NCBI GenBank assembly: GCA_963804995.1 | Contig: CAWDSK010000006.1 | Span: 2,108,698 to 2,172,697 of the forward strand | From: an uncultured Acidobacteriota bacterium | GTDB taxonomy: Bacteria > Acidobacteriota > Terriglobia > UBA7540 | DNA: 64,000 nt | Reading direction: 5' to 3' | Shown: one piece after another, positions 48,330 through 64,000 of the stretch | Layout: each line of letters opens with the position of its first letter | How positions within the stretch are numbered: position 1 is the first letter of the stretch | Position numbers and translations under genes: made by a program | The notes under the pieces: generated by a model | Databases searched by the model: none | What the model saw: the letters and a program-made list of their open reading frames with translations, nothing else | Told to the model about the DNA's origin: nothing

Positions 48330-48405
48330 TGGTGGACCTGGGGAGGATCGAACTCCCGACCCCATGGTTGCAAACCATGTGCTCTCCCAGCTGAGCTACA
48401 GGCCC
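48330..48405 (-). tRNA. tRNA-Ala(TGC)
   Basis: Cloverleaf, anticodon TGC, G3:U70, encoded CCA. Confidence 0.97.
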
Positions 48406-48474: not shown

Positions 48475-48519
48475 TGGTGGGCCTGGGTAGAGTTGAACTA
48501 CCGACCTCACCCTTATCAG
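48475..48519 (-). repeat. att core: duplicated 3' 45 bp of tRNA-Ile
   Basis: Identical to 55670-55714. Confidence 0.95.
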
Positions 48520-48963
48520 TTGTCACCAGTGAATCTGTGAGGCGTGGTGAGAAGTGAATATCAGCCGCTATTTATGCGGGTGCGCTCGTAATGGGCCGTT
48601 GTGAGGCGAAGTGAGCGATTACCACGCGAATTTAACGAGGTGTGCACCAAAATGTGCACCAAATTTCTCTGCCCTGGAATGGTGCAACTGCGATGCGCTC
48701 TCGCGTGAGGGCTTAGTGTTTACCTTGCCTGATTCCTTCCGGCGCGTCCTAGGTCCAATGGTGGGCCACGGCGGGGCATTCTGGGCGATGACGTGGGGCG
48801 CATCCCGACTGAAAGCGGCGGGCCGGGGCACTCACAATCATTGTCCAAGGGCGGCTGGGTAGACCCCCTGATTCGCACGGACGGGGTTGAACCAAATTTT
48901 TTTTGTTGGCGTCTGCTCTCGCGCTGTCAGCCGCAGACCCGGCCCGTGTTAGTATTTGACTGT

Positions 48964-49645: not shown

Positions 49646-49921
49646 TTAGTTGGCTACCACCCAAAATTTGTGGTCAGTGAACCTCATGCACTGATAGAGC
49701 TTGAGGAGCTTTCCGCTGACATCGGTTTTGGTGGTTCCTGTGAAGTAGGCGCTGGAGCCGCAAACCGGGCACTTGACTTCCGCAGGAACCGGAGCTGCTA
49801 CTTCAACTCCGTGGGTCAATGGGAATCCGTAAGTGCCAGCAGTTGGCGTATGCGCAAAGACGACCCCGACGATTAGTCCCAATAGAAGCGTAACACTAGC
49901 AGTCTGAATTCGACGTTTCAT
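49646..49921 (-). CDS. Small exported protein with CPVC..C..H zinc-ribbon-like motif
   Basis: GGAG RBS, signal peptide MKRRIQ..VFA. Confidence 0.6.
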   Translation of the reverse strand: MKRRIQTASVTLLLGLIVGVVFAHTPTAGTYGFPLTHGVEVAAPVPAEVKCPVCGSSAYFTGTTKTDVSGKLLKLYQCMRFTDHKFWVVAN

Positions 49922-50076
49922 GGAATCTCCATTCGTAACGGACACTTTCCGCTTGCGGCCAAAGTTTACATTGATTCTTAATCACCTGCGTTCGCCTTCC
50001 TCTAGACCTCGGCATTGTATCTCTGGCGGAGGGGCGTTACCATCGGTCTGGTTTGGCGGTTCGGGGGGGGGTAGCC

Positions 50077-50901
50077 ATGGGCACATCGAACGGCGAGCAA
50101 GCCAAGGGCCTCGAAAGCAAGTGGTGGTACCGGCTTCTGAGGGTAATTCTCCTCCCGCTCTACGGGCTGGTTCTCCTTGTGGCCTTGTGGCTCATCTATA
50201 ACGGGGACCACCCTCGTAATCTTGTCGATGCTCAAAGAAGCCTGATCGTGTGCGATGATGGCAAGACCTATCCCGTCGCGGCGGTTTGGGCACCAGACAC
50301 TTTGGTTCCTGACGACCCATGGCGGAACCCACTGACACATATTGGGGACCAGCTTCGCTCTTGGAGAAATAGGGCGTTCAGAGAGGATGACATCCTCTCA
50401 ACCGGGGCTGTCCCCATACCTGGTGGGGCGATTATAGGCGGCGATGACAGCGCGGCCCGTAACTGGTGTAGCTACGGACAAGCTTCGATTCCAAGCGAGG
50501 GCCTCGTAACAGTACACATATCTGACGAGGGGGAAATCACGGGTGTGCCGATCGCTAGCACCAAAGGGGGCAGGCTTGACCCCGACCTGATGGCACGCTA
50601 CCAGCGGTGGCTGATTTCCCACTTAGTCCAAGTTCCTGCGCCACCGAAAGGTTACGTTCGGATTGATCCAAGAACCGGAGAACGGATTGCAGACGAAACG
50701 CTTCAATTTCAAGCGCTCCACAGTTACACGCTCAAGGCGGCGTTCAACACGGAGGGAAGCTGGGGCACGATGCTCTGGTACATGGCAATCGCTTGGCTGG
50801 TTATTCATCTCGCCTTCGTAGCAGTGCGCGGGGCAGTGCTATACGTGGCTGTGGGCACGTTTCTTCCCGTGCGAGGGCTTCGCGGTTGGTTGCTGCTGTG
50901 A
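50077..50901 (+). CDS. Hypothetical membrane protein, TM at both ends with extracytoplasmic loop
   Basis: LESKWWYRLLRV-TM ... TM-RGAVLYVAVG. Confidence 0.65.
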   Translation: MGTSNGEQAKGLESKWWYRLLRVILLPLYGLVLLVALWLIYNGDHPRNLVDAQRSLIVCDDGKTYPVAAVWAPDTLVPDDPWRNPLTHIGDQLRSWRNRAFREDDILSTGAVPIPGGAIIGGDDSAARNWCSYGQASIPSEGLVTVHISDEGEITGVPIASTKGGRLDPDLMARYQRWLISHLVQVPAPPKGYVRIDPRTGERIADETLQFQALHSYTLKAAFNTEGSWGTMLWYMAIAWLVIHLAFVAVRGAVLYVAVGTFLPVRGLRGWLLL

Positions 50902-51443: not shown

Positions 51444-53201
51444 TTATGCGGCTGGCGGCCCCTTTTCGGATTCTTGTTCCCTTGTTCCCACTATATGGTT
51501 GGAACAAGGAAACGAGTATTTATAAGGGTCGCCCTTTTTGCCGCTTCCCTCTCGCGTCACCCTGCCATTCGCAACTAGCACCCGAAGAGCTTTTCGCTTG
51601 AGGATGGTTTTGCCGTCCACTTGCTCATCAATCTCCGGCTCAGTCTTTCCCTCTCCCGCGGCTTTCAGAAATTCGACGATGGCCTCTTCGCACTCTTGCC
51701 GCTCAGCCTCAAACCGGGTGCCCCCGACTGATAGACGCCGGGATTCCGAGTCAAATTGCAGTACCGTTTCCGGCATCCATTCGCCCAGCCGTTGGACTGT
51801 CTGAATAGTTCGGTAGGCTTCGGTACGTTTCAAAACGAGGAGACTGTTGACCGCCCCGCCGATGGCCGTTGTGCCGAGCGGCGAATCTATGGCATCCGCC
51901 TTCAGCGCTTTGCCGGAATGGTGCGTCACTAATAGGAGAGTTTCAGTAACTCGGGCGATGTCGATTAACGGCCCCAGCGCCTTGTACCCTTCGGCATAGG
52001 CTTTTTCATCTTTGACGTGAATCATTCGGAATAGTGGGTCGATAACCACCAAGACTGGCTTGTGCTTCCGCACAAGAGCAATCAGGGCGAGTACACCACC
52101 TTCCGGGGTAGTGTCGGCGTGGATCGAGATTGGTTCCTCGCCCGTTGCGCCCATTGCCCGAAAGTCTGCCGTGACATCCTCAACCCGTTCTTCCAGCGCC
52201 AGGTAGATGCAAGGGCCACCCTTGGTGTGCAATCCGAGGAATTCCTCACCACGCGATACGGCTAGGCAGAGATTTCTTGCAAATGTTGACTTGCCGACTT
52301 TGGGCTTTGAGACGACAGCAGAGACAGTGCCCGCCGCCAACCGGCCTTGCCAAACCCAATCAACCGGCTTATCAGGCCGGGAGAGCAATTCACCCAGCCT
52401 CACAAGTCGGAAACCAGACTCCGGCTTCAGCGTCGCCCACTTCGCCACATCTGCCGCCGTCAATTCGGCTGTGCCGTTGACGATTTCAAGCAATTGCTCT
52501 CGCGCCCCTTCCAGGTCGCCGCCCCCAAGTTCAACCCACTCGGTCAGGTCTTTCGCTTGCGGCAACGCTTCGATCACCTTGACGGATTCAGCTAACCCGA
52601 CCATTGACCGAGCCACATCGCGCGCATGAGCTACGCCGGGGGCGTCGGCGTCGGCGATAATCACAACTCGCTTTCCCTTGAGAAGCTTGGAGTATTCGGG
52701 CCGCCACTTTCCAGCGCCGTGGGGGTTGCAGGTGGCGACAAGCCCTAGGTTTCGCGCTGTTTCAGAGTCCTTTTCTCCCTCGCAGACATAAACGGCCTCG
52801 GCTTTGATGACCTCGGGCAAGTTGTAGGGGACACGGCGCACACCCTCCAGGTTCCATATCCAACCGCCTCGGCCATCGGGCCGCCGCTGCTTGAACGCCT
52901 TGGGCTCGTAACGTACAACCTCGAAAAGCAGTTTCCCATTCTCGTCAACGTAGCGGTAGGTTAAGGCAATTCTCTGATTCGGTGTCTCCGGGCCGTGGAA
53001 TAAATCAGCCATCGTAAGCCCCATGGCACTCAAGATGTCTTGGATTCGACAGCCCGCGTGACAATGAAGCAAGATTTTGCCGCCTTCCTCGCGGACGCTG
53101 AGCGAAGGGTTGCGGTCTTCGTGGGCAGGGCACAGGGCGGTCACGGCGGGGCCGTTGCGGCTCACACCTTTGAGCTTGCCAAGCAATTCCGTCAGGGTCA
53201 T
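51444..53201 (-). CDS. Primase-helicase (Zn finger + TOPRIM + RepA/AAA_25)
   Basis: CPAH..CHAGC, CEGEKD, DAD, Walker A SKPKVGKS, LVVIDP, HHSGK. Confidence 0.9.
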   Translation of the reverse strand: MTLTELLGKLKGVSRNGPAVTALCPAHEDRNPSLSVREEGGKILLHCHAGCRIQDILSAMGLTMADLFHGPETPNQRIALTYRYVDENGKLLFEVVRYEPKAFKQRRPDGRGGWIWNLEGVRRVPYNLPEVIKAEAVYVCEGEKDSETARNLGLVATCNPHGAGKWRPEYSKLLKGKRVVIIADADAPGVAHARDVARSMVGLAESVKVIEALPQAKDLTEWVELGGGDLEGAREQLLEIVNGTAELTAADVAKWATLKPESGFRLVRLGELLSRPDKPVDWVWQGRLAAGTVSAVVSKPKVGKSTFARNLCLAVSRGEEFLGLHTKGGPCIYLALEERVEDVTADFRAMGATGEEPISIHADTTPEGGVLALIALVRKHKPVLVVIDPLFRMIHVKDEKAYAEGYKALGPLIDIARVTETLLLVTHHSGKALKADAIDSPLGTTAIGGAVNSLLVLKRTEAYRTIQTVQRLGEWMPETVLQFDSESRRLSVGGTRFEAERQECEEAIVEFLKAAGEGKTEPEIDEQVDGKTILKRKALRVLVANGRVTREGSGKKGDPYKYSFPCSNHIVGTREQESEKGPPAA

Positions 53202-53402
53202 CTAGGCCCCCCGAGCTTTGGCGGGGCGCAAGCCCTCTGCGATAAGTCGGCCCACTTCTTCACTCGGGATGCGCACCAGACGGCCCAGCTTGACGTGCGC
53301 AATCTTCCGTTCCAAGAGCCATCTGCGACAGCACGCGACTGTGACTCCGAGGGCCTCAGCAAATTGTGCGACCGATAGTAATCTCGTTTGGTCATTCGCC
53401 AT
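53202..53402 (-). CDS. Excisionase-like HTH protein
   Basis: LLSVAQFAEALGV..RRW..KLGRLVRI; GGAGG RBS. Confidence 0.85.
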   Translation of the reverse strand: MANDQTRLLSVAQFAEALGVTVACCRRWLLERKIAHVKLGRLVRIPSEEVGRLIAEGLRPAKARGA

Positions 53403-53680: not shown

Positions 53681-54178
53681 TTAGAGAAGGCCATGTTTGC
53701 GGCCCCACATGAGGGCTTTTGAAACTGCGTTGGCTGGATTCGTGAATGTGTTGAGGGTCGGTTTTAGGGCAGGGAGTTCCGCTAGTTGTTTAGGTTTCAT
53801 CTGCATCTTGTGTTTCTGATATTCCTCGCAGATCCGCCGATATATTTTCTCGTTTTCAGGGGGGCGGCCCCGATTCTTCTTGGCTCGCAACGGGTCGGTG
53901 TCTCTCTCAGGGCGTTCGCCCGACGGTTGGTCAAGGTCCGCATCGCGCCTTATGAGTTCCACTTTCAATGAGCGGATGCGGCGAGTCAGGTCGTAAAGAA
54001 GCACTCTCTCGGGCCTGCCTTTCCCTTCAGCATACTGTGAGATAACCGAAGGGGTTTCCGGCAACTGCGCTAGGTGGGGGAATTCCTTCACGAGTCTGTC
54101 TCTCTGCTTCTCCTGGCGCTGCAACTCACGGCGCAGATCGGACGGGGCTAAACCGGTCAATTCCGTTTCAGAGGTCAC
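53681..54178 (-). CDS. Hypothetical protein, possible DNA-binding regulator
   Basis: GTG start after GGAGG; RGRPP AT-hook-like motif. Confidence 0.6.
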   Translation of the reverse strand: MTSETELTGLAPSDLRRELQRQEKQRDRLVKEFPHLAQLPETPSVISQYAEGKGRPERVLLYDLTRRIRSLKVELIRRDADLDQPSGERPERDTDPLRAKKNRGRPPENEKIYRRICEEYQKHKMQMKPKQLAELPALKPTLNTFTNPANAVSKALMWGRKHGLL

Positions 54179-54215
54179 AGGCCACCTCCCGCGTGGCAAT
54201 CCCGGAGTGAGGGTA

Positions 54216-54269
54216 GGTCGGCAGGCGGGCCGGGATGCGTCCGCTCTTCGGGAGCTACCCTAGCCGACC
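54216..54269 (-). ncRNA. Putative CI/C4-like antisense leader RNA
   Basis: Closing stem ggtcggc/gccgacc; three internal segments complementary to downstream sites. Confidence 0.6.
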
Positions 54270-54282
54270 GTTTACAGGCTGG

Positions 54283-54333
54283 ATTCTACACCTTCAGTTT
54301 TTGCTTGACAAGGGAAAACCTACCGGCTAAGAT
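54283..54333. promoter_or_regulatory. Overlapping back-to-back sigma70 promoters
   Basis: Plus TTGACA(54305)-17-TAAGAT; minus TTGTCA(54311)-17-TAGAAT. Confidence 0.7.
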
Positions 54334-54353
54334 AAATCTTGGCGGCTACGTTT

Positions 54354-54515
54354 ATGGAAAAAGACACGGACGCGGCAATCCGAGAGTACCTCACGAAGAT
54401 TGGGCGCAAGGGCGGCAAGGCTCGGGCGGCGAAGCACAGCAAGGCCGAACTGAGCAAGTGGGCCAAGCGCGGCGGCAGGCCGCGAAAGGACAAAACTGAG
54501 AAGGGGGGGAAGTGA
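54354..54515 (+). CDS. 53-aa basic KGG/GRPRK protein upstream of integrase
   Basis: MEKDTDAAIREYLTKIGRKGGKARAAKHSKAELSKWAKRGGRPRKDKTEKGGK; stop 1 bp before int ATG; not in ORF track. Confidence 0.7.
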   Translation: MEKDTDAAIREYLTKIGRKGGKARAAKHSKAELSKWAKRGGRPRKDKTEKGGK

Positions 54516-54516
54516 C

Positions 54517-55668
54517 ATGCTTTATCAACGAGGGCAGCAAAAGATTTGGTGGTATCGCTTTCGCTTCGCGGGGCGGATTGTACACGAGTCGGCCAAGACC
54601 ATGAGTAAGACCGTAGCGCGGGAAGCCGAGCGCGCCCGAAGGCGACAGTTTGAGGAAACATGGAATCGCATTGAGAAGCGCACCCTTCCCCCACGTTTCG
54701 ATCAAGCTGCAAGTGCGTGGCTCGCGGAAGTGAGGCCACACCTGGCTGAGCGCACGCAAGACATATATGGAGTAGCACTCGACTGTCACCTAGTACCTGA
54801 GCTTGGCTCTCTGTTGCTGTGCGACCTCTCGGCAGAGGTAATCGCCCGCTATCAAGCAAAACGGAAAGCCGAGAATGCCTCGGCTCGCACGCTTAACAAA
54901 GAGCTTCAGGTATTGCGCCAGATTCTCAGGCGGCACAAGCTGTGGGCCAACCTGCAAGGGGATGTGAAGTTTGAGCGGGAGTCGGAAGGCATCGGTAAGG
55001 CGCTCGCACGTGAGGAAGAGAAGAAACTTTTGAGTGCCTGCGAGTCCAATCAACTGCTGCACACGGCTGTAACTCTTGCCCTAAACACGGGCCTGCGAAA
55101 GAACGAAATCCGCACCCTGCAATGGAATCAGATTGACCTTTTCAAGAAGGAACTAACGGTAGGCAAGGCAAAGACCGAAGGCGGGAGCGGCAGGCTGATT
55201 CCGCTTAACCCGCTGGCCTTCGCTGCCCTTGTGAAGTGGGCAGGCCGCTTCCCTGACGCCAAGCCAGAGGATTATGTTTTCCCGGCTTGCGAGGCGGCAG
55301 GAATCGAACGCGAGCACCCTGACAACGAGAGAATTGACCCTTCCAAGCCTATCAAGTCTTGGCGGTCGGCATGGCGCGCCGCTCTGAAGCGGGCGGGGCT
55401 GACAATTCGCTTCCATGACCTTCGCCACACCTGCATCACCAAGCTCGCCGAAAGCCTGACATCAGACCAGACCATCATGGCAATCGCAGGACACGTCAGC
55501 CGCAAGATGGTTGAGCACTATTCCCACATTCGGACTGACGCCAAGCGAGTGGCTCTAGACCTTATCGCCCAGGCCCCAAATCCGGCCATAATTCAGGCAG
55601 GTGTGCACCAAAATGGTAACCAAGTGCCGGAAGGTGAAAAGCGGGGTCTTGCTAACTCCATGAATTGA
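54517..55668 (+). CDS. int: Tyrosine recombinase/integrase
   Basis: TGLR..E, K, HDLRH, GH, Y catalytic residues; ends adjacent to att. Confidence 0.95.
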   Translation: MLYQRGQQKIWWYRFRFAGRIVHESAKTMSKTVAREAERARRRQFEETWNRIEKRTLPPRFDQAASAWLAEVRPHLAERTQDIYGVALDCHLVPELGSLLLCDLSAEVIARYQAKRKAENASARTLNKELQVLRQILRRHKLWANLQGDVKFERESEGIGKALAREEEKKLLSACESNQLLHTAVTLALNTGLRKNEIRTLQWNQIDLFKKELTVGKAKTEGGSGRLIPLNPLAFAALVKWAGRFPDAKPEDYVFPACEAAGIEREHPDNERIDPSKPIKSWRSAWRAALKRAGLTIRFHDLRHTCITKLAESLTSDQTIMAIAGHVSRKMVEHYSHIRTDAKRVALDLIAQAPNPAIIQAGVHQNGNQVPEGEKRGLANSMN

Positions 55669-55669
55669 T

Positions 55670-55746
55670 TGGTGGGCCTGGGTAGAGTTGAACTACCGAC
55701 CTCACCCTTATCAGGGGTGCGCTCTAGCCACCTGAGCTACAGGCCC
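55670..55746 (-). tRNA. tRNA-Ile(GAT)
   Basis: Cloverleaf, anticodon GAT, encoded CCA. Confidence 0.97.
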
Positions 55747-58137: not shown

Positions 58138-59550
58138 ATGTTTGCGCGCCACAACCGGCTGATGGGTGTCATTTACCTTTGCGCCGATCTCCTTCTGGCG
58201 CTCGCAAGTTTTGCCGTGGCGACCGAGTTTCGCACCCATCTCGCGGTGCGCCCCCTTTACTTACCTGCGCATTATCCCTGGCTCATTCTGCTGACTGTCG
58301 CCCTGTGGGTGGGCGTGGGGGTGGCATCAGGAATTTACCGTGACGTGGACGAGCAGGATCTGCGCCGCACGCTCGGCGACCCTTTTAGAGTAGGTTTCGC
58401 CTCCACGCTTTTTCTGTTCGCGGTTACCTTCGCCTTCAAGCTGGAATACATCAGCCGCTTGCTGCTGGGATTGTACGCGCTGACCGATCTTTTCCTGATG
58501 ATCACGTTCCGCCTGGTGGCACGGCGCTTTGGGACCGCCTTGCGCGGCAGCGTGGCGGGTTTTCGTAATTTTCTCCTGGTGGGTGAAGGCCCCGAAGTCA
58601 TGGAGATTGCCCGCACTCTCGAAGCCCACGAAACCAGCGGCATGCGATTGTTCGGTTTTGTTCGGGTGGGGACGGGACCGGAGTCCCCCGCTCCAGGACT
58701 CGCCAAATCCTACCCGACCTTCCAACTCCCCGAACTTCCCGCGATGCTGCGCCGGCAGGTAATCGATGAAGTGATCTTTGCCGTGGGCAAGGAGGAACTG
58801 GAGAAGCTCGAGGAGACATTTCTGGTTTGTGAGGAAGAGGGTGTCAAGACCCGCGTCCTCCTCAGCTTTTTTCCGCACGTCATTTCCAAAGTCTATCTCG
58901 AACGGTTGGGAGACAAGCCCCTCCTGACCTTTTCCGCTACGCCCGATGACGAATTGTTGCTGCTGAAGCGCGTTCTCGATTTCGTCATGGCCCTCGCGGC
59001 GCTGCTGATACTCTCGCCGATTCTTTTGGTCCTGGCGATTCTGGTCAAACTCACCTCGCGCGGCCCCATCTTCTTCCGCCAGACGCGCTGCGGCCTGGGG
59101 GGCCGGAAGTTCACGCTCTACAAATTCCGCTCCATGCTAGCGGACGCTGACCTGCGTCGCGAGGAGGTGGAGGCCCTGAACGAGGTGGATGGGCCGGTAT
59201 TCAAAATCAAGAATGACCCGCGCTGCACTCCCATGGGACGCTTCATGCGCAAGTTCAGTCTGGATGAACTCCCCCAACTGGTCAATATCCTTAGAGGTGA
59301 TATGTCGTTTGTGGGGCCACGCCCGCCCCTTCCGGAGGAAGTGGAAAAATACGAGCCCTGGCAGCGGCGGCGCCTGCGCATGCAGCCCGGGTTGACTTGT
59401 TTATGGGCGCTCGAAGGGCGCAGCCAGCTCAATTTTCGCCGCTGGATGGAGTTGGATTTCGAGTACATCGACCACTGGTCGATGACACTCGATTGGAAGA
59501 TTCTGCTGAGAACGATTCCCGTGGTTCTGCTGGGCCGCGGGGCGAGTTAG
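58138..59550 (+). CDS. Polyprenyl-phosphate glycosylphosphotransferase (WcaJ/WbaP family)
   Basis: KRVLD, KFRSM, DPR, LDELPQL, GPRP. Confidence 0.92.
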   Translation: MFARHNRLMGVIYLCADLLLALASFAVATEFRTHLAVRPLYLPAHYPWLILLTVALWVGVGVASGIYRDVDEQDLRRTLGDPFRVGFASTLFLFAVTFAFKLEYISRLLLGLYALTDLFLMITFRLVARRFGTALRGSVAGFRNFLLVGEGPEVMEIARTLEAHETSGMRLFGFVRVGTGPESPAPGLAKSYPTFQLPELPAMLRRQVIDEVIFAVGKEELEKLEETFLVCEEEGVKTRVLLSFFPHVISKVYLERLGDKPLLTFSATPDDELLLLKRVLDFVMALAALLILSPILLVLAILVKLTSRGPIFFRQTRCGLGGRKFTLYKFRSMLADADLRREEVEALNEVDGPVFKIKNDPRCTPMGRFMRKFSLDELPQLVNILRGDMSFVGPRPPLPEEVEKYEPWQRRRLRMQPGLTCLWALEGRSQLNFRRWMELDFEYIDHWSMTLDWKILLRTIPVVLLGRGAS

Positions 59551-59876
59551 GAAGGCGTCTTACGTTGTTTCCGCCCCCCGCCACCCTGCTACCCCACCCA
59601 ATCTGGCTCATCCTGGGCGTCGATCCCGCCGATAACCGATACGGGAAAGTGTGGTACGGCCGGGCAGGTTGGCGCAGAGCGAGCCCGCACGGTAGCACAG
59701 GCACTCCTGCCTGTGAATGTGGCTCGAGGTTCGAGCTTAGCGACACAGCCAGGAGTGGCTGTGCTACGCCGTCCCGGGTTGGAGATTTGGGGTTTTCCAA
59801 TACGAAGGGCCGCGGACCCCAAAAACGGGGGACCGCGCTACGAAACAGGCCCGTCCGGGCCACCAGCGGCGTAGCG

Positions 59877-61789
59877 GTTGCGGTAGGGATACCGGTTACC
59901 CGGTACCCCCCGCACGGATCCGTACGTGCGCTGGTTAGCGCATACGGCTCTTATCTCGGATGTGTGGCGGCGAACCGTTGGGATGGCCAAGGATGCACAA
60001 CGTGCGGAGCAGGCAACCAGCAGGCCGCAAGCTTCCCCAGTCGGTCCCAGTTGAGGCGGTGGCGTTGACTGCGTTGACGCAGTTGTGTTCGCCACAGTCG
60101 GGTCAACCGTTCCCGAAAGATTCGCAGGCGGTCGAGGTTTCCCGGTACCGCGTGATAGTTGAAGTAGCCTTGCACGACCGACCGGAGCCATTTACCCGTA
60201 TCCGCGATGGGATCGTGCCGACGCTGCCGGAGTTGTTGCTTGAGTTCCTGCAACTTCCCCCGCAGGCGCTTGCTGATCGTCTTCCGCTTCACGGTAAATT
60301 GCCCCCTCCGGTTCTTCCCGCTGATATGCGTGAAGCCCAGAAAGTCGAACGTCTCCGGCTTACCTTCTCCTCTCCGTTTCCGGTAAAGTTCGGCAAACGG
60401 CCCGAACTCGATCCGGCGCGTTTTGTCAGGATGCAGTTCCAATCCAAACTTCCCCACCCGCTCCCGGAAATCCTCCAGAAAGCGGTCGGCTTCCGTCTGC
60501 GATTGGAATCCAAGGACCGTATCGTCGGCATACCGCACCACGACCACGTCTCCCCGGGCGTGCTTCTTGCGCCACGCCTGCACCCACAGGTCAAAGACGT
60601 AGTGCAGATAGATATTCGCCAGCAGGGGCGAGACCACCGCCCCTTGTGGCGTACCCATCTCCGTCTCCGACCATTCGCCTTCCTCCATCACCCCGGCTTT
60701 CAGCCATTTCTGGATGAGCCGGAGAATCCGGGGGTCGGCGACGCGATGCTGCACGAACTTGAGCATCCATTCGTGGGATATCGAATCGAAAAATCCACGA
60801 ATGTCCGCGTCAAGAACGTAGTTCACGTGCTTCACCGTGAGCGCGTACGAGAGCGCGTCCAGCGCTTGATGCTGGCTGCGTCCCGGTCGAAAGCCATACG
60901 AGAAGCCCAGAAAGTCTTCCTCGTAAATCGCCTTGAGGATGGTGACCACGGCCTGTTGGACGATCTTGTCCTCCAGTGCCGCAACCCCCAACGGACGTTG
61001 CCGCCCGTCGCCTTTCGGGATATACGCCCTTCGCGAGGGCTTCGCTCGGAATGCTCCGCGGTGGACCCGGCTGTGCAGATCGACGAGTCGACCTTCCAGC
61101 CCGCTTTCATACTCCTGCCACGTCATGCCGTCTACTCCCGGTGCAGCTTTTCGCTTCAAGGCGTAAAAGCTTTCCCGCAGCAGATCGACCGTTAAGTGGT
61201 GGAGCAAGGCCGTGAACTTCATCTCCCTGTGTTCCTTCGCGGCTTTCCGCACACCCGCGAGTCCCTGGGACACGCGTGCCCCGCTCTGTGTCGGGTGCGT
61301 GTTAGGCCAACGGGTGTTCTCCTTGATCAGCGGCCTTCCCTCCTCATTCTCCGCCAACGGCTTCCCGTCTTTGTTCAAATGATTCATCGGTACTGTTCCG
61401 CTGTCCGACTCCTCGAAAGCGTGCAGGCGGGCTGTACGGCCATCGCCTTTTCCCGCCGTCCGGCCACGATCTACGGCGGCCGGCGCCTCCGAGGTCTCCC
61501 GGTTCTCGTGCAGAAAGTGTCTAGGCGTGTCTGGGGTCTACGACTACGCAGGACTGTGCCGGAACTCGCGTTGGCGTCCCGGCCTCATGTTGCCTTCCGT
61601 TTAGTCTGAAAACGTCGGCGTCCTGATTGGACATTTTCGAAGCTCAATACCCAGCCCACCTATTCCCCTGTTTACGCTTCACCGTGCGCCTCACGACGCC
61701 CAGCGCAAAACTCGGGGCCGAGTGGATCGCTACTTCTTCCTCGTGAGAAATTTTCATTCTCTGCTTTCTGCCGGTTTATCCCGGCGCAC
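59877..61789 (-). mobile_element. Group II intron, copy 1
   Basis: 5' GTGCG at 61789, domain V gagccgtatgcg..cgcacgtacggatc, 3' ..ccgcaAC at 59877. Confidence 0.93.
59951..61387 (-). CDS. ltrA: Group II intron RT/maturase, no endonuclease domain
   Basis: APGVDG, GFRPG, GTPQG, RYADD, FDFLG; start uncertain. Confidence 0.95.
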   Translation of the reverse strand: MNHLNKDGKPLAENEEGRPLIKENTRWPNTHPTQSGARVSQGLAGVRKAAKEHREMKFTALLHHLTVDLLRESFYALKRKAAPGVDGMTWQEYESGLEGRLVDLHSRVHRGAFRAKPSRRAYIPKGDGRQRPLGVAALEDKIVQQAVVTILKAIYEEDFLGFSYGFRPGRSQHQALDALSYALTVKHVNYVLDADIRGFFDSISHEWMLKFVQHRVADPRILRLIQKWLKAGVMEEGEWSETEMGTPQGAVVSPLLANIYLHYVFDLWVQAWRKKHARGDVVVVRYADDTVLGFQSQTEADRFLEDFRERVGKFGLELHPDKTRRIEFGPFAELYRKRRGEGKPETFDFLGFTHISGKNRRGQFTVKRKTISKRLRGKLQELKQQLRQRRHDPIADTGKWLRSVVQGYFNYHAVPGNLDRLRIFRERLTRLWRTQLRQRSQRHRLNWDRLGKLAACWLPAPHVVHPWPSQRFAATHPR

Positions 61790-62053
61790 CAGACCTCCGC
61801 TGTTGAGGTCTGCGGTTCTTCGTGAACCACTGGAGCGAATGTATCGTGGAGGGATGCAGCCGCCGGTGGTAGCACAGGCACTCCTGCCTGTGAATGTGGC
61901 TCGAGGTTCGAGCTTAGCGACACAGCCAGGAGTGGCTGTGCTACGCCGTCCCGGGTTGGAGATTTGGGGTTTTCCAATACGAAGAGCCGCGGACCCCAAG
62001 AACGGGGGACCGCGCTACGAAACAGGCCCGTCCGGGCCACCAGCGGCGTAGCG

Positions 62054-63966
62054 GTTGCGGTAGGGATACCGGTTACCCGGTACCCCCCGCACGGATCCGT
62101 ACGTGCGCTGGTTAGCGCATACGGCTCTTATCTCGGATGTGTGGCGGCGAACCGTTGGGATGGCCAAGGATGCACAACGTGCGGAGCAGGCAACCAGCAG
62201 GCCGCAAGCTTCCCCAGTCGGTCCCAGTTGAGGCGGTGGCGTTGACTGCGTTGACGCAGTTGTGTTCGCCACAGTCGGGTCAACCGTTCCCGAAAGATTC
62301 GCAGGCGGTCGAGGTTTCCCGGTACCGCGTGATAGTTGAAGTAGCCTTGCACGACCGACCGGAGCCATTTACCCGTATCCGCGATGGGATCGTGCCGACG
62401 CTGCCGGAGTTGTTGCTTGAGTTCCTGCAACTTCCCCCGCAGGCGCTTGCTGATCGTCTTCCGCTTCACGGTAAATTGCCCCCTCCGGTTCTTCCCGCTG
62501 ATATGCGTGAAGCCCAGAAAGTCGAACGTCTCCGGCTTACCTTCTCCTCTCCGTTTCCGGTAAAGTTCGGCAAACGGCCCGAACTCAATCCGGCGCGTTT
62601 TGTCAGGATGCAGTTCCAATCCAAACTTCCCCACCCGCTCCCGGAAATCCTCCAGAAAGCGGTCGGCTTCCGTCTGCGATTGGAATCCAAGGACCGTATC
62701 GTCGGCATACCGCACCACGACCACGTCTCCCCGGGCGTGCTTCTTGCGCCACGCCTGCACCCACAGGTCAAAGACGTAGTGCAGATAGATATTCGCCAGC
62801 AGGGGCGAGACCACCGCCCCTTGTGGCGTACCCATCTCCGTCTCCGACCATTCGCCTTCCTCCCTCACCCCGGCTTTCAGCCATTTCTGGATGAGCCGGA
62901 GAATCCGGGGGTCGGCGACGCGATGCTGCACGAACTTGAGCATCCATTCGTGGGATATCGAATCGAAAAATCCACGAATGTCCGCGTCAAGAACGTAGTT
63001 CACGTGCTTCACCGTGAGCGCGTACGAGAGCGCGTCCAGCGCTTGATGCTGGCTGCATCCCGGTCGAAAGCCATACGAGAAGCCCAGAAAGTCTTCCTCG
63101 TAAATCGCATTGAGGATGGTGACCACGGCCTGTTGGACGATCTTGTCCTCCAGTGCCGCAACCCCCAACGGACGTTGCCGCCCGTCGCCTTTCGGGATAT
63201 ACGCCCTTCGCGAGGGCTTCGCTCGGAATGCTCCGCGGTGGACCCGGCTGTGCAGATCGACGAGTCGACCTTCCAGCCCGCTTTCATACTCCTGCCACGT
63301 CATGCCGTCTACTCCCGGTGCAGCTTTTCGCTTCAAGGCGTAAAAGCTTTCCCGCAGCAGATCGACCGTTAAGTGGTGGAGCAAGGCCGTGAACTTCATC
63401 TCCCTGTGTTCCTTCGCGGCTTTCCGCACACCCGCGAGTCCCTGGGACACGCGTGCCCCGCTCTGTGTCGGGTGCGTGTTAGGCCAACGGGTGTTCTCCT
63501 TGATCAGCGGCCTTCCCTCCTCATTCTCCGCCAACGGCTTCCCGTCTTTGTTCAAATGATTCATCGGTACTGTTCCGCTGTCCGACTCCTCGAAAGCGTG
63601 CAGGCGGGCTGTACGGCCATCGCCTTTTCCCGCCGTCCGGCCACGATCTACGGCGGCCGGCGCCTCCGAGGTCTCCCGGTTCTCGTGCAGAAAGTGTCTA
63701 GGCGTGTCTGGGGTCTACGACTACGCAGGACTGTGCCGGAACTCGCGTTGGCGTCCCGGCCTCATGTTGCCTTCCGTTTAGTCTGAAAACGTCGGCGTCC
63801 TGATTGGACATTTTCGAAGCTCAATACCCAGCCCACCTATTCCCCTGTTTACGCTTCACCGTGCGCCTCACGACGCCCAGCGCAAAACTCGGGGCCGAGT
63901 GGATCGCTGCTCCTTCCTCGTGAGAAATTTTCATTCTCTGCTTTCTGCCGGTTTATCCCGGCGCAC
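62054..63966 (-). mobile_element. Group II intron, copy 2
   Basis: Same boundaries offset by 2177 bp. Confidence 0.93.
62128..63564 (-). CDS. ltrA: Group II intron RT/maturase, copy 2
   Basis: Three amino-acid differences from copy 1 (K/N, R/C, M/R). Confidence 0.95.
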   Translation of the reverse strand: MNHLNKDGKPLAENEEGRPLIKENTRWPNTHPTQSGARVSQGLAGVRKAAKEHREMKFTALLHHLTVDLLRESFYALKRKAAPGVDGMTWQEYESGLEGRLVDLHSRVHRGAFRAKPSRRAYIPKGDGRQRPLGVAALEDKIVQQAVVTILNAIYEEDFLGFSYGFRPGCSQHQALDALSYALTVKHVNYVLDADIRGFFDSISHEWMLKFVQHRVADPRILRLIQKWLKAGVREEGEWSETEMGTPQGAVVSPLLANIYLHYVFDLWVQAWRKKHARGDVVVVRYADDTVLGFQSQTEADRFLEDFRERVGKFGLELHPDKTRRIEFGPFAELYRKRRGEGKPETFDFLGFTHISGKNRRGQFTVKRKTISKRLRGKLQELKQQLRQRRHDPIADTGKWLRSVVQGYFNYHAVPGNLDRLRIFRERLTRLWRTQLRQRSQRHRLNWDRLGKLAACWLPAPHVVHPWPSQRFAATHPR

Positions 63967-64000
63967 CAGACCTCCGCCGTTGAGGTCTGCGGTTCTTCGT

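Follow-up and report, generated by a model that had tools for sequence, protein, structure and literature searches.

An int-alpA leader RNA with one variable loop and two downstream complements at the head of an operon in an integrated element of an Acidobacteriota bacterium

Introduction

The CI RNA of P4 pairs with seqA upstream and with seqC downstream (accessible parts of PMC4825925 and PMC3632133). In P1 and P7, the a′ and b′ loops of C4 RNA bind targets at the ribosome-binding site (RBS) after processing by RNase P (accessible parts of PMC5320573 and PMC12197685). IsrK of Gifsy-1 activates translation, and the short form of this leader acts in trans on the long form (PMC4825925, same portion). 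For the Gram-negative PICIs, the control of alpA is described as open in the accessible portions of two papers (PMC6092414, PMC11773190).

Here we analyse a leader RNA in a 64,000-nucleotide stretch of contig CAWDSK010000006.1 from an uncultured Acidobacteriota bacterium; this whole stretch is called the window, and all coordinates refer to it. An initial annotation, made from the letters alone, had read the leader as a CI/C4-like antisense RNA with three downstream targets. Judged by its Rfam match and by comparison with relatives, the RNA at 54201-54270 is a further member of the catalogued int-alpA family (RF02996) and not of C4/CI. The int-alpA motif reportedly originates from Weinberg et al. 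2017. RF02996 is typed as “Gene; sRNA” in Rfam, and the motif is not named in the main text of PMC5737381. In the accessible parts of two further papers (PMC12370729, PMC13612085), int-alpA stands for a gene order in one and for an untested entry of a genome table in the other. Our literature search, which covered the main text of the motif paper, found no paper describing the function of int-alpA RNA; a pseudoknot between loop L3 and site T1, both described below, may be annotated in the supplement of that paper.

Results

The host element is 7.2 kb long, integrated at tRNA-Ile and flanked by identical 45-bp repeats (Table 1). It lies between tRNA-Ile(GAT) and tRNA-Ala(TGC) (48330-48405), a pair that is usual in rRNA spacers; no rRNA was found in the window by Rfam. 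Near both ends of the element there is a 34-nt repeat (48629-48662 and 55590-55623, 79% identical), which possibly provides arm-type sites for the integrase. Thirteen ORFs of the element were scanned against Pfam and PHROGs. Most of them have no family, and neither packaging/interference genes nor a CI/Stl-type repressor was found among them, so that the element can be called only a putative satellite. The claim of the initial annotation that no CI-type repressor is visible thus stands for these 13 ORFs, but the repressor position is occupied by a small basic ORF. This ORF has no Pfam or PHROG match; it has 85 matches including itself, and it also stands before int in two related loci (L391 and L393). 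Its protein carries conserved GGKARA and WAKxGGRP motifs and is encoded without a clear Shine-Dalgarno (SD) sequence, and a second copy was noticed at G000 C6:815972. The cargo at 49646-50901 encodes two proteins without a family: one of 99 aa, which has a hydrophobic N-terminus and an end resembling a zinc ribbon, and one of 282 aa, which is hydrophobic at its ends. Elsewhere in the window, two near-identical group II introns, each with an RT-like ORF of 478 aa, lie in tandem about 2.18 kb apart on the minus strand (~59400-64000).

Table 1. Features of the element and of its leader RNA, in window coordinates
Feature	Position	Strand	Remarks
att copy 1, 45 bp	48475..48519	plus	Other end of element; family D1, 100% identical
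Primase-helicase	51444..53201	minus	CHC2 zinc finger, AAA_25; Pfam, PHROGs
xis (HTH_17 excisionase / AlpA-like regulator)	53202..53402	minus	PF12728, E 1.9e-7; phrog_66
orf165	53681..54178	minus	First gene below leader; GTG start 54178
P4 hairpin	54181..54197	minus	T2 in loop; overlaps Shine-Dalgarno
T2, CGGGA	54191-54187	minus	Overlaps GGAGG 54189-54185
T1, CCGGGAT	54199..54205	minus	Proximal L3 complement (7 bp); predicted parking/decoy site
CTACCCT	54216-54210	minus	First target of the initial annotation; present, not conserved
Three-way junction (P1, P2, P3) of int-alpA RNA	54216..54269	minus	RF02996 and two-sided changes
P1 arms	54269-54263 with 54222-54216	minus	GGTCGGC with GCCGACC
P2 hairpin	54250..54260	minus	Loop palindrome AGCT; possible contact for RNA-RNA dimers
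P3 hairpin	54225..54244	minus	Loop L3 with guide ATCCCGG at 54236-54230
Sigma70-like promoter	54283..54311	minus	TTGTCA (54311-54306)-17-TAGAAT (54288-54283)
Divergent promoter	54305..54333	plus	TTGACA-17-TAAGAT; -35 region common with minus-strand promoter
Small basic ORF	54339..54515	plus	Repressor position; 58 aa, 53 aa from ATG 54354
Tyrosine integrase (int)	54517..55668	plus	PF00589, E 3.4e-26
tRNA-Ile(GAT), intact	55670..55746	minus	Holds 45-bp att copy 55670-55714

The initial annotation proposed a search against Rfam and a test for covariation, and both were carried out. The search returned a known family, int-alpA, on the minus strand (36.4 bits against a cut-off of 35.8, E 8.3e-6); the match spans the full model (positions 1-71) and lies only 0.6 bit over the cut-off. 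Over 53900-54600, nothing matched the C4, c4-2 or isrK models at E up to 10. The location, with a divergent int upstream and HTH_17 about 0.8 kb downstream, fits the int/AlpA placement that the family name implies. On inspection, the motifs quoted in the initial annotation all lie on the minus strand where it had put them; AGGGTAG (54261-54255) and CTCCCG (54254-54249) are the two arms of hairpin P2, not loops. In the Rfam model the junction letters are conserved and the loops variable.

The three-way-junction fold is supported by the comparison of related sequences. The core alignment holds 33 hand-picked sequences of the 48 listed, and the invariance of the junction in it is partly forced by the search pattern. 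In the core helices, 96.1% of the cells are paired, compared with 32-56% in slid controls, and there are 77 two-sided changes, compared with 24 in shuffled alignments (0/500 shuffles). Covariation is strong for P1 and P3, and P2 is mostly invariant. Because MAFFT failed to register T1 and T2, these pair counts are limited to the core, and a permutation test was used for the targets; with it, the L3-target pairing was found to covary across homologs. In the window copy, minimum-energy folding does not favour the Rfam fold (z = -0.6 and -1.64), which for the whole leader has -30.0 kcal/mol against -39.2 kcal/mol for the minimum-energy fold, both being pseudoknot-free energies.

A 4-nt palindrome is found in the P2 loop of 40 of 72 distinct listed sequences, compared with 16.9 in shuffled loops (maximum 29), and the same test shows no enrichment in the L3 loops. 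A common class of P2 has a GACG loop and no palindrome. A U-rich tail follows the 3′ side of P1 in 29 of 106 listed loops, compared with 9 of 99 controls. In the window copy P1 is not followed by a U-tract, so that a short form of this copy would need processing.

Relatives were collected with a junction pattern, which gave at least 120 viral loci and at least 120 genome loci; 17 of 20 chosen homolog loci exceed the Rfam cut-off. A second pattern returned mostly chance matches, 13 of its 120 listed loci passing the parser. The parser, which took no account of what lies downstream, accepted 177 of 390 listed loci; it removed chance matches together with some real-looking copies and retained a few doubtful ones. 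Among the 177 listed loci, 172 have full flanks, 160 are distinct and 106 have distinct loops.

In these 106 distinct listed loops, the best complementary run between L3 and its own 60 downstream nucleotides is 5.80, compared with 4.13 for non-cognate downstream sequences, and the second run is 4.86 compared with 3.43. The sum of the two runs (10.66) was reached in none of 10,000 permutations (7.76 permuted, maximum 8.29), and the signal persists in 35 loops without a common 5-mer (10.51 compared with 7.49). The upstream 60 nucleotides give only background (mean 3.97), and there is no signal 200 nt downstream. Two copies of one and the same 5-mer complement are present for 58 of the 106 listed loops, in 34 codes, compared with 100 of 9968 non-cognate pairs (1.0%); the exact double 5-mer is absent from the remaining 48. 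A run of at least 5 is found at the proximal site T1 in 88 of 106 listed loops (6.7% in non-cognate pairs) and in the range of the distal site T2 in 71 of 106 (21.2% in non-cognate pairs). These comparisons show that L3-T1 and L3-T2 complementarity change in step across relatives. Since kin are not independent, these counts overstate certainty, which the de-replicated set limits and does not remove. The covariation is equally compatible with action in cis or in trans, and with repression or activation.

T1 and T2 are matched by the same L3 bases in 77 of 97 listed loops, so that one loop cannot hold both sites at once. T1 is the longer of the two sites in 58 of the 97, T2 is longer in 8, and in 31 their lengths are the same; T1 is stronger than T2 by just 0.8 kcal/mol on average (70/106 listed loops). 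Downstream of P1, T1 follows at a distance of about 9 nt and T2 at about 24 nt. In 61 of 97 listed loops T2 falls within the loop of a hairpin, compared with 34.5 with shuffled flanks. An SD-like word lies on T2 or directly beside it in 68 of 106; the distance from T2 to the start codon has a median of 5 nt (93 ORFs, with a crude choice of start). In the window copy, the hairpin P4 pairs bases that lie after the SD and before the start codon, and T1 does not overlap P4. At the remaining starts of the element (xis, primase, int and the rest), runs with L3 do not exceed 4 bp. In the three related genomes with two parsed or inspected full-length copies, the two loop sequences differ within each genome, a number too small for a statistical test.

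The three downstream complements of the initial annotation are all present, among them CGGGAG (54191-54186), which indeed overlaps the GGAGG RBS of the GTG at 54178; across homologs only the pairing of L3 holds, as one guide for two targets. The fit of the L3 core to T2 had been overlooked, as had the P4 hairpin and the int-alpA score. In the window alone, such complements are modestly above chance: when the downstream 37 nt are shuffled by dinucleotides, 1.9% of the shuffles give three runs of at least 6 and 13% give two. The arms of P2 failed as guides. Their mean run against their own downstream sequence is 4.34, the same as against the downstream sequences of others (4.34). Among the 39 listed records with exactly the same P2, one, that of the window, has CTACCC within 45 nt, and three, all with the TCCCG loop, have CGGGAG there. 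In the closest relative (L391/L013), whose int is 74% identical and whose first gene is the same, P2 is different and lacks these complements, and L3, T1 and T2 are kept. The extra P2 complements of the window arise from the resemblance of its loop code TCCCG to the 3′ arm of P2. In the window copy, a duplex of the P2 3′ arm with T2 (-12.1 kcal/mol, compared with -9.0 for L3-T2) would be possible if P2 were opened.

The promoter that had been placed ahead of the RNA is present, with 10 of 12 consensus matches; promoter-grade sites of this score number 2, compared with 0.7 expected. Its predicted transcription start is at about 54276, some 7 nt ahead of P1. In 38 of 106 listed loops there is a -10-like box whose end lies 2-16 nt ahead of P1, compared with 5 and 7 in control windows, and such a box stands just before P1 in 19 of 20 parsed relatives. 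As the promoter box directly precedes P1, the message probably begins with this RNA and has no room for an upstream target. On the other strand, an inverted repeat overlaps the -10 box of the divergent promoter. Back-to-back promoters with overlapping -35 hexamers are seen at 54305-54345 and in three related loci (L391, L392 and L393), and in all four an element-specific inverted repeat lies over the plus-strand promoter as a candidate operator. The small basic protein, together with this candidate operator, is a candidate second route of control. A terminator-like site at 54382-54367 was discarded, being at chance level (2 found, 2.2 expected).

The leader heads a minus-strand operon of orf165, xis and primase. 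The GTG at 54178, which the initial annotation took as the start of orf165, is supported by three homologs that begin at the same residue. The protein has a helical hairpin N-domain, a linker with an RGRP motif and a small helical C-domain. It has no Pfam or PHROG match, and its Atlas matches are all under 0.9; no Foldseek match was found at E 0.001 or better, comparison with VIA gave generic helical hairpin matches only (Z at most 8.4), and no relatives were found in a metagenome scan. One homolog (P0004) carries PF00196/PF04545, which we take to be HTH-type families, in a C-terminal part that aligns poorly with orf165.

int-alpA is found in 21 of 101 near-group genomes and in 7 of 151 genomes sampled across the phylum; the present genome is one of those counted in each case. 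Among 65 scanned ORFs downstream of the RNA, a few of which look like wrongly picked ORFs, 20 have a Pfam match; the families include Rha, AntA, P22_AR_N, KilA-N, HNH, GIY-YIG, NUMOD3, DUF1376, Dam and integrases. PHROGs named 3 further ORFs among 41 rescanned. Thus, the genes below int-alpA include dose-sensitive ones, such as antirepressors, HNH and GIY-YIG nucleases and integrases. In one locus (L088), two int-alpA-like copies with different loop codes (near 1501 and 2100) are separated by about 600 nt; a KilA-N gene follows the second copy. A subfamily before Rha/AntA antirepressor genes (L037, L058, L079 and L289) has matches of 8-9 bp, and its T2 spans the start codon, not the SD. Five further loci (L028, L068, L070, L107 and L315) have an intact junction without matching downstream sites; they are perhaps decayed or rearranged copies, or possible trans-only donors.

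Discussion

One loop with two mutually exclusive sites, of which the near one is harmless and the far one lies on the RBS, makes a decoy-and-effector layout. In P4, seqA acts as a decoy. We give an even chance to the reading that the int-alpA leader, with L3 against T1 and T2, is a self-limiting translational switch that closes as copies of the RNA accumulate. On a lone transcript, L3 would meet T1 first and remain bound to it in a pseudoknot. The RBS of orf165 would then stay accessible, and orf165, xis and primase would thus be made after entry or induction. A second loop, coming from another transcript and perhaps brought in by P2-P2 kissing, would then bind T2; it might also come from a short terminated or processed form without T1, or it might take T1 and so free the cis loop for T2. 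With T2 occupied, ribosome loading would be blocked. The sequence of L3 would serve as an address by which co-resident elements are kept distinct. Repression and its direction, action in trans, dimer formation and any short RNA are what we infer from these patterns. An RNA-seq search for a short form with a single homolog (L075) gave a best RNA share of at most 0.29; of the 24 runs, 4 were compared with the motif, and among these the contigs cannot show ends and the one raw-read run missed the motif.

The same covariation results would fit equally well if the RNA worked purely in cis as a timer or damper, with L3 on T1 during transcription and later on T2, or in equilibrium between the two, giving each mRNA a brief period or a low fixed rate of translation without a second RNA. 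The fixed short spacing of both sites after P1 suits pairing in cis, and many unrelated genes, lone nucleases among them, follow the motif. However, the palindromic P2 loops have no role in a monomer, and T1 is usually the stronger site, so that a spontaneous move of L3 to T2 would be uphill; we think such a device unlikely, while taking it seriously. Conservation of the junction letters beside variable loops could also mean that a protein or a small ligand (orf165, a factor of a helper phage or of the host) binds the junction and shifts L3 between T1 and T2, and alpA in Gram-negative PICIs depends on an unidentified helper-phage signal according to the accessible part of PMC6092414. This is rather improbable in our judgement: the downstream genes are unrelated to each other, the invariance of the junction in the alignment owes something to the search pattern, and the model PICI EcCICFT073 has no int-alpA match.

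Pairing of L3 beside or within P4 might instead open a hairpin that hides the RBS and so activate translation. The repZ pseudoknot of IncI plasmids activates translation, and the P4 of the window does pair bases between SD and start codon. Against such activation, T1 is clear of P4 in the window, and L3 paired with T2 would itself occupy the SD, given the SD-like word on or next to T2 in most listed loops; it therefore seems quite improbable. The lowest probability falls to the model of the initial annotation, in which a C4/CI-like antisense RNA with three guides and three targets replaces a protein repressor. All three complements exist, the shuffles seldom give three, and the duplex of the P2 3′ arm with T2 is strong, but P2 carries no cognate signal, the closest relative has changed P2 while keeping L3, T1 and T2, and no C4 or IsrK match appears in Rfam even at E up to 10. 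We regard this model as very improbable.

For the preferred reading, a switch that closes with the number of RNA copies, a wider version may be put forward tentatively, and we would sooner expect it to fail than to hold. int-alpA would be a widespread, protein-free RNA copy counter built from a programmable loop, a parking site in cis, an RBS site and palindromic P2 dimers, by which each element silences its own lead gene, and the loop codes, at least 34 and orthogonal, would act as incompatibility or immunity addresses. If this were true, int-alpA would represent a CI/C4-like system that evolved a second time, independently, and would offer a ready scaffold for controlling translation orthogonally. 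Action in trans, if true, would explain how some elements without a repressor stay quiet and apart. An orphan Rfam family gains a precise and cheaply testable mechanism, with the relevant pairing corrected to L3. int-alpA fronts excision and replication operons of small integrated elements as well as antirepressor, nuclease and integrase genes of phages.

The structure described here agrees with the RF02996 model in its P1/P2/P3 junction. The model ends inside T1, without P4, T2 or the RBS part, and its printed structure line has no loop-target pairing; pseudoknots are not printed in that line, and the source alignment may annotate L3-T1. With the Gram-negative PICIs, as described in the accessible part of PMC6092414, the element shares int, an AlpA/xis-like HTH gene and primase at a specific att site, and it likewise has no evident master repressor; it differs in having no packaging genes among its 13 scanned ORFs and a divergent int. 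In EcCICFT073, no int-alpA was found in 12800-17300 of L401, and a scan of the chromosome was also empty, as were its controls; int-alpA is thus not a general answer for Gram-negative PICIs. IsrK, in the accessible account of it, resembles the inferred int-alpA step in having short and long forms of one leader, but it is an activator of a different family, whose Rfam model does not match the window RNA.

The likeness to CI and C4 that the initial annotation drew is fair as a working logic, but the Rfam family is int-alpA, with no C4/isrK match. By analogy, the window RNA likely works like P4 CI or P1 C4 without belonging to either family. So far as the accessible accounts of C4 go, both are three-stem RNAs with specificity in a variable loop and a target at the RBS, and some int-alpA homologs precede antirepressor genes; C4 uses two loops on two different targets, whereas int-alpA uses one loop on two copies of one target. 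Unlike P4 CI, the window RNA has both its targets downstream, its promoter leaving only about 7 nt before P1, and it is followed by no icd/kil-like peptide and has no Rfam match to C4 or IsrK. With P4 CI, as far as it is described in the accessible sources, it shares an antisense loop that is encoded in the leader, two targets on its own transcript and a place in a satellite-like element before replication genes.
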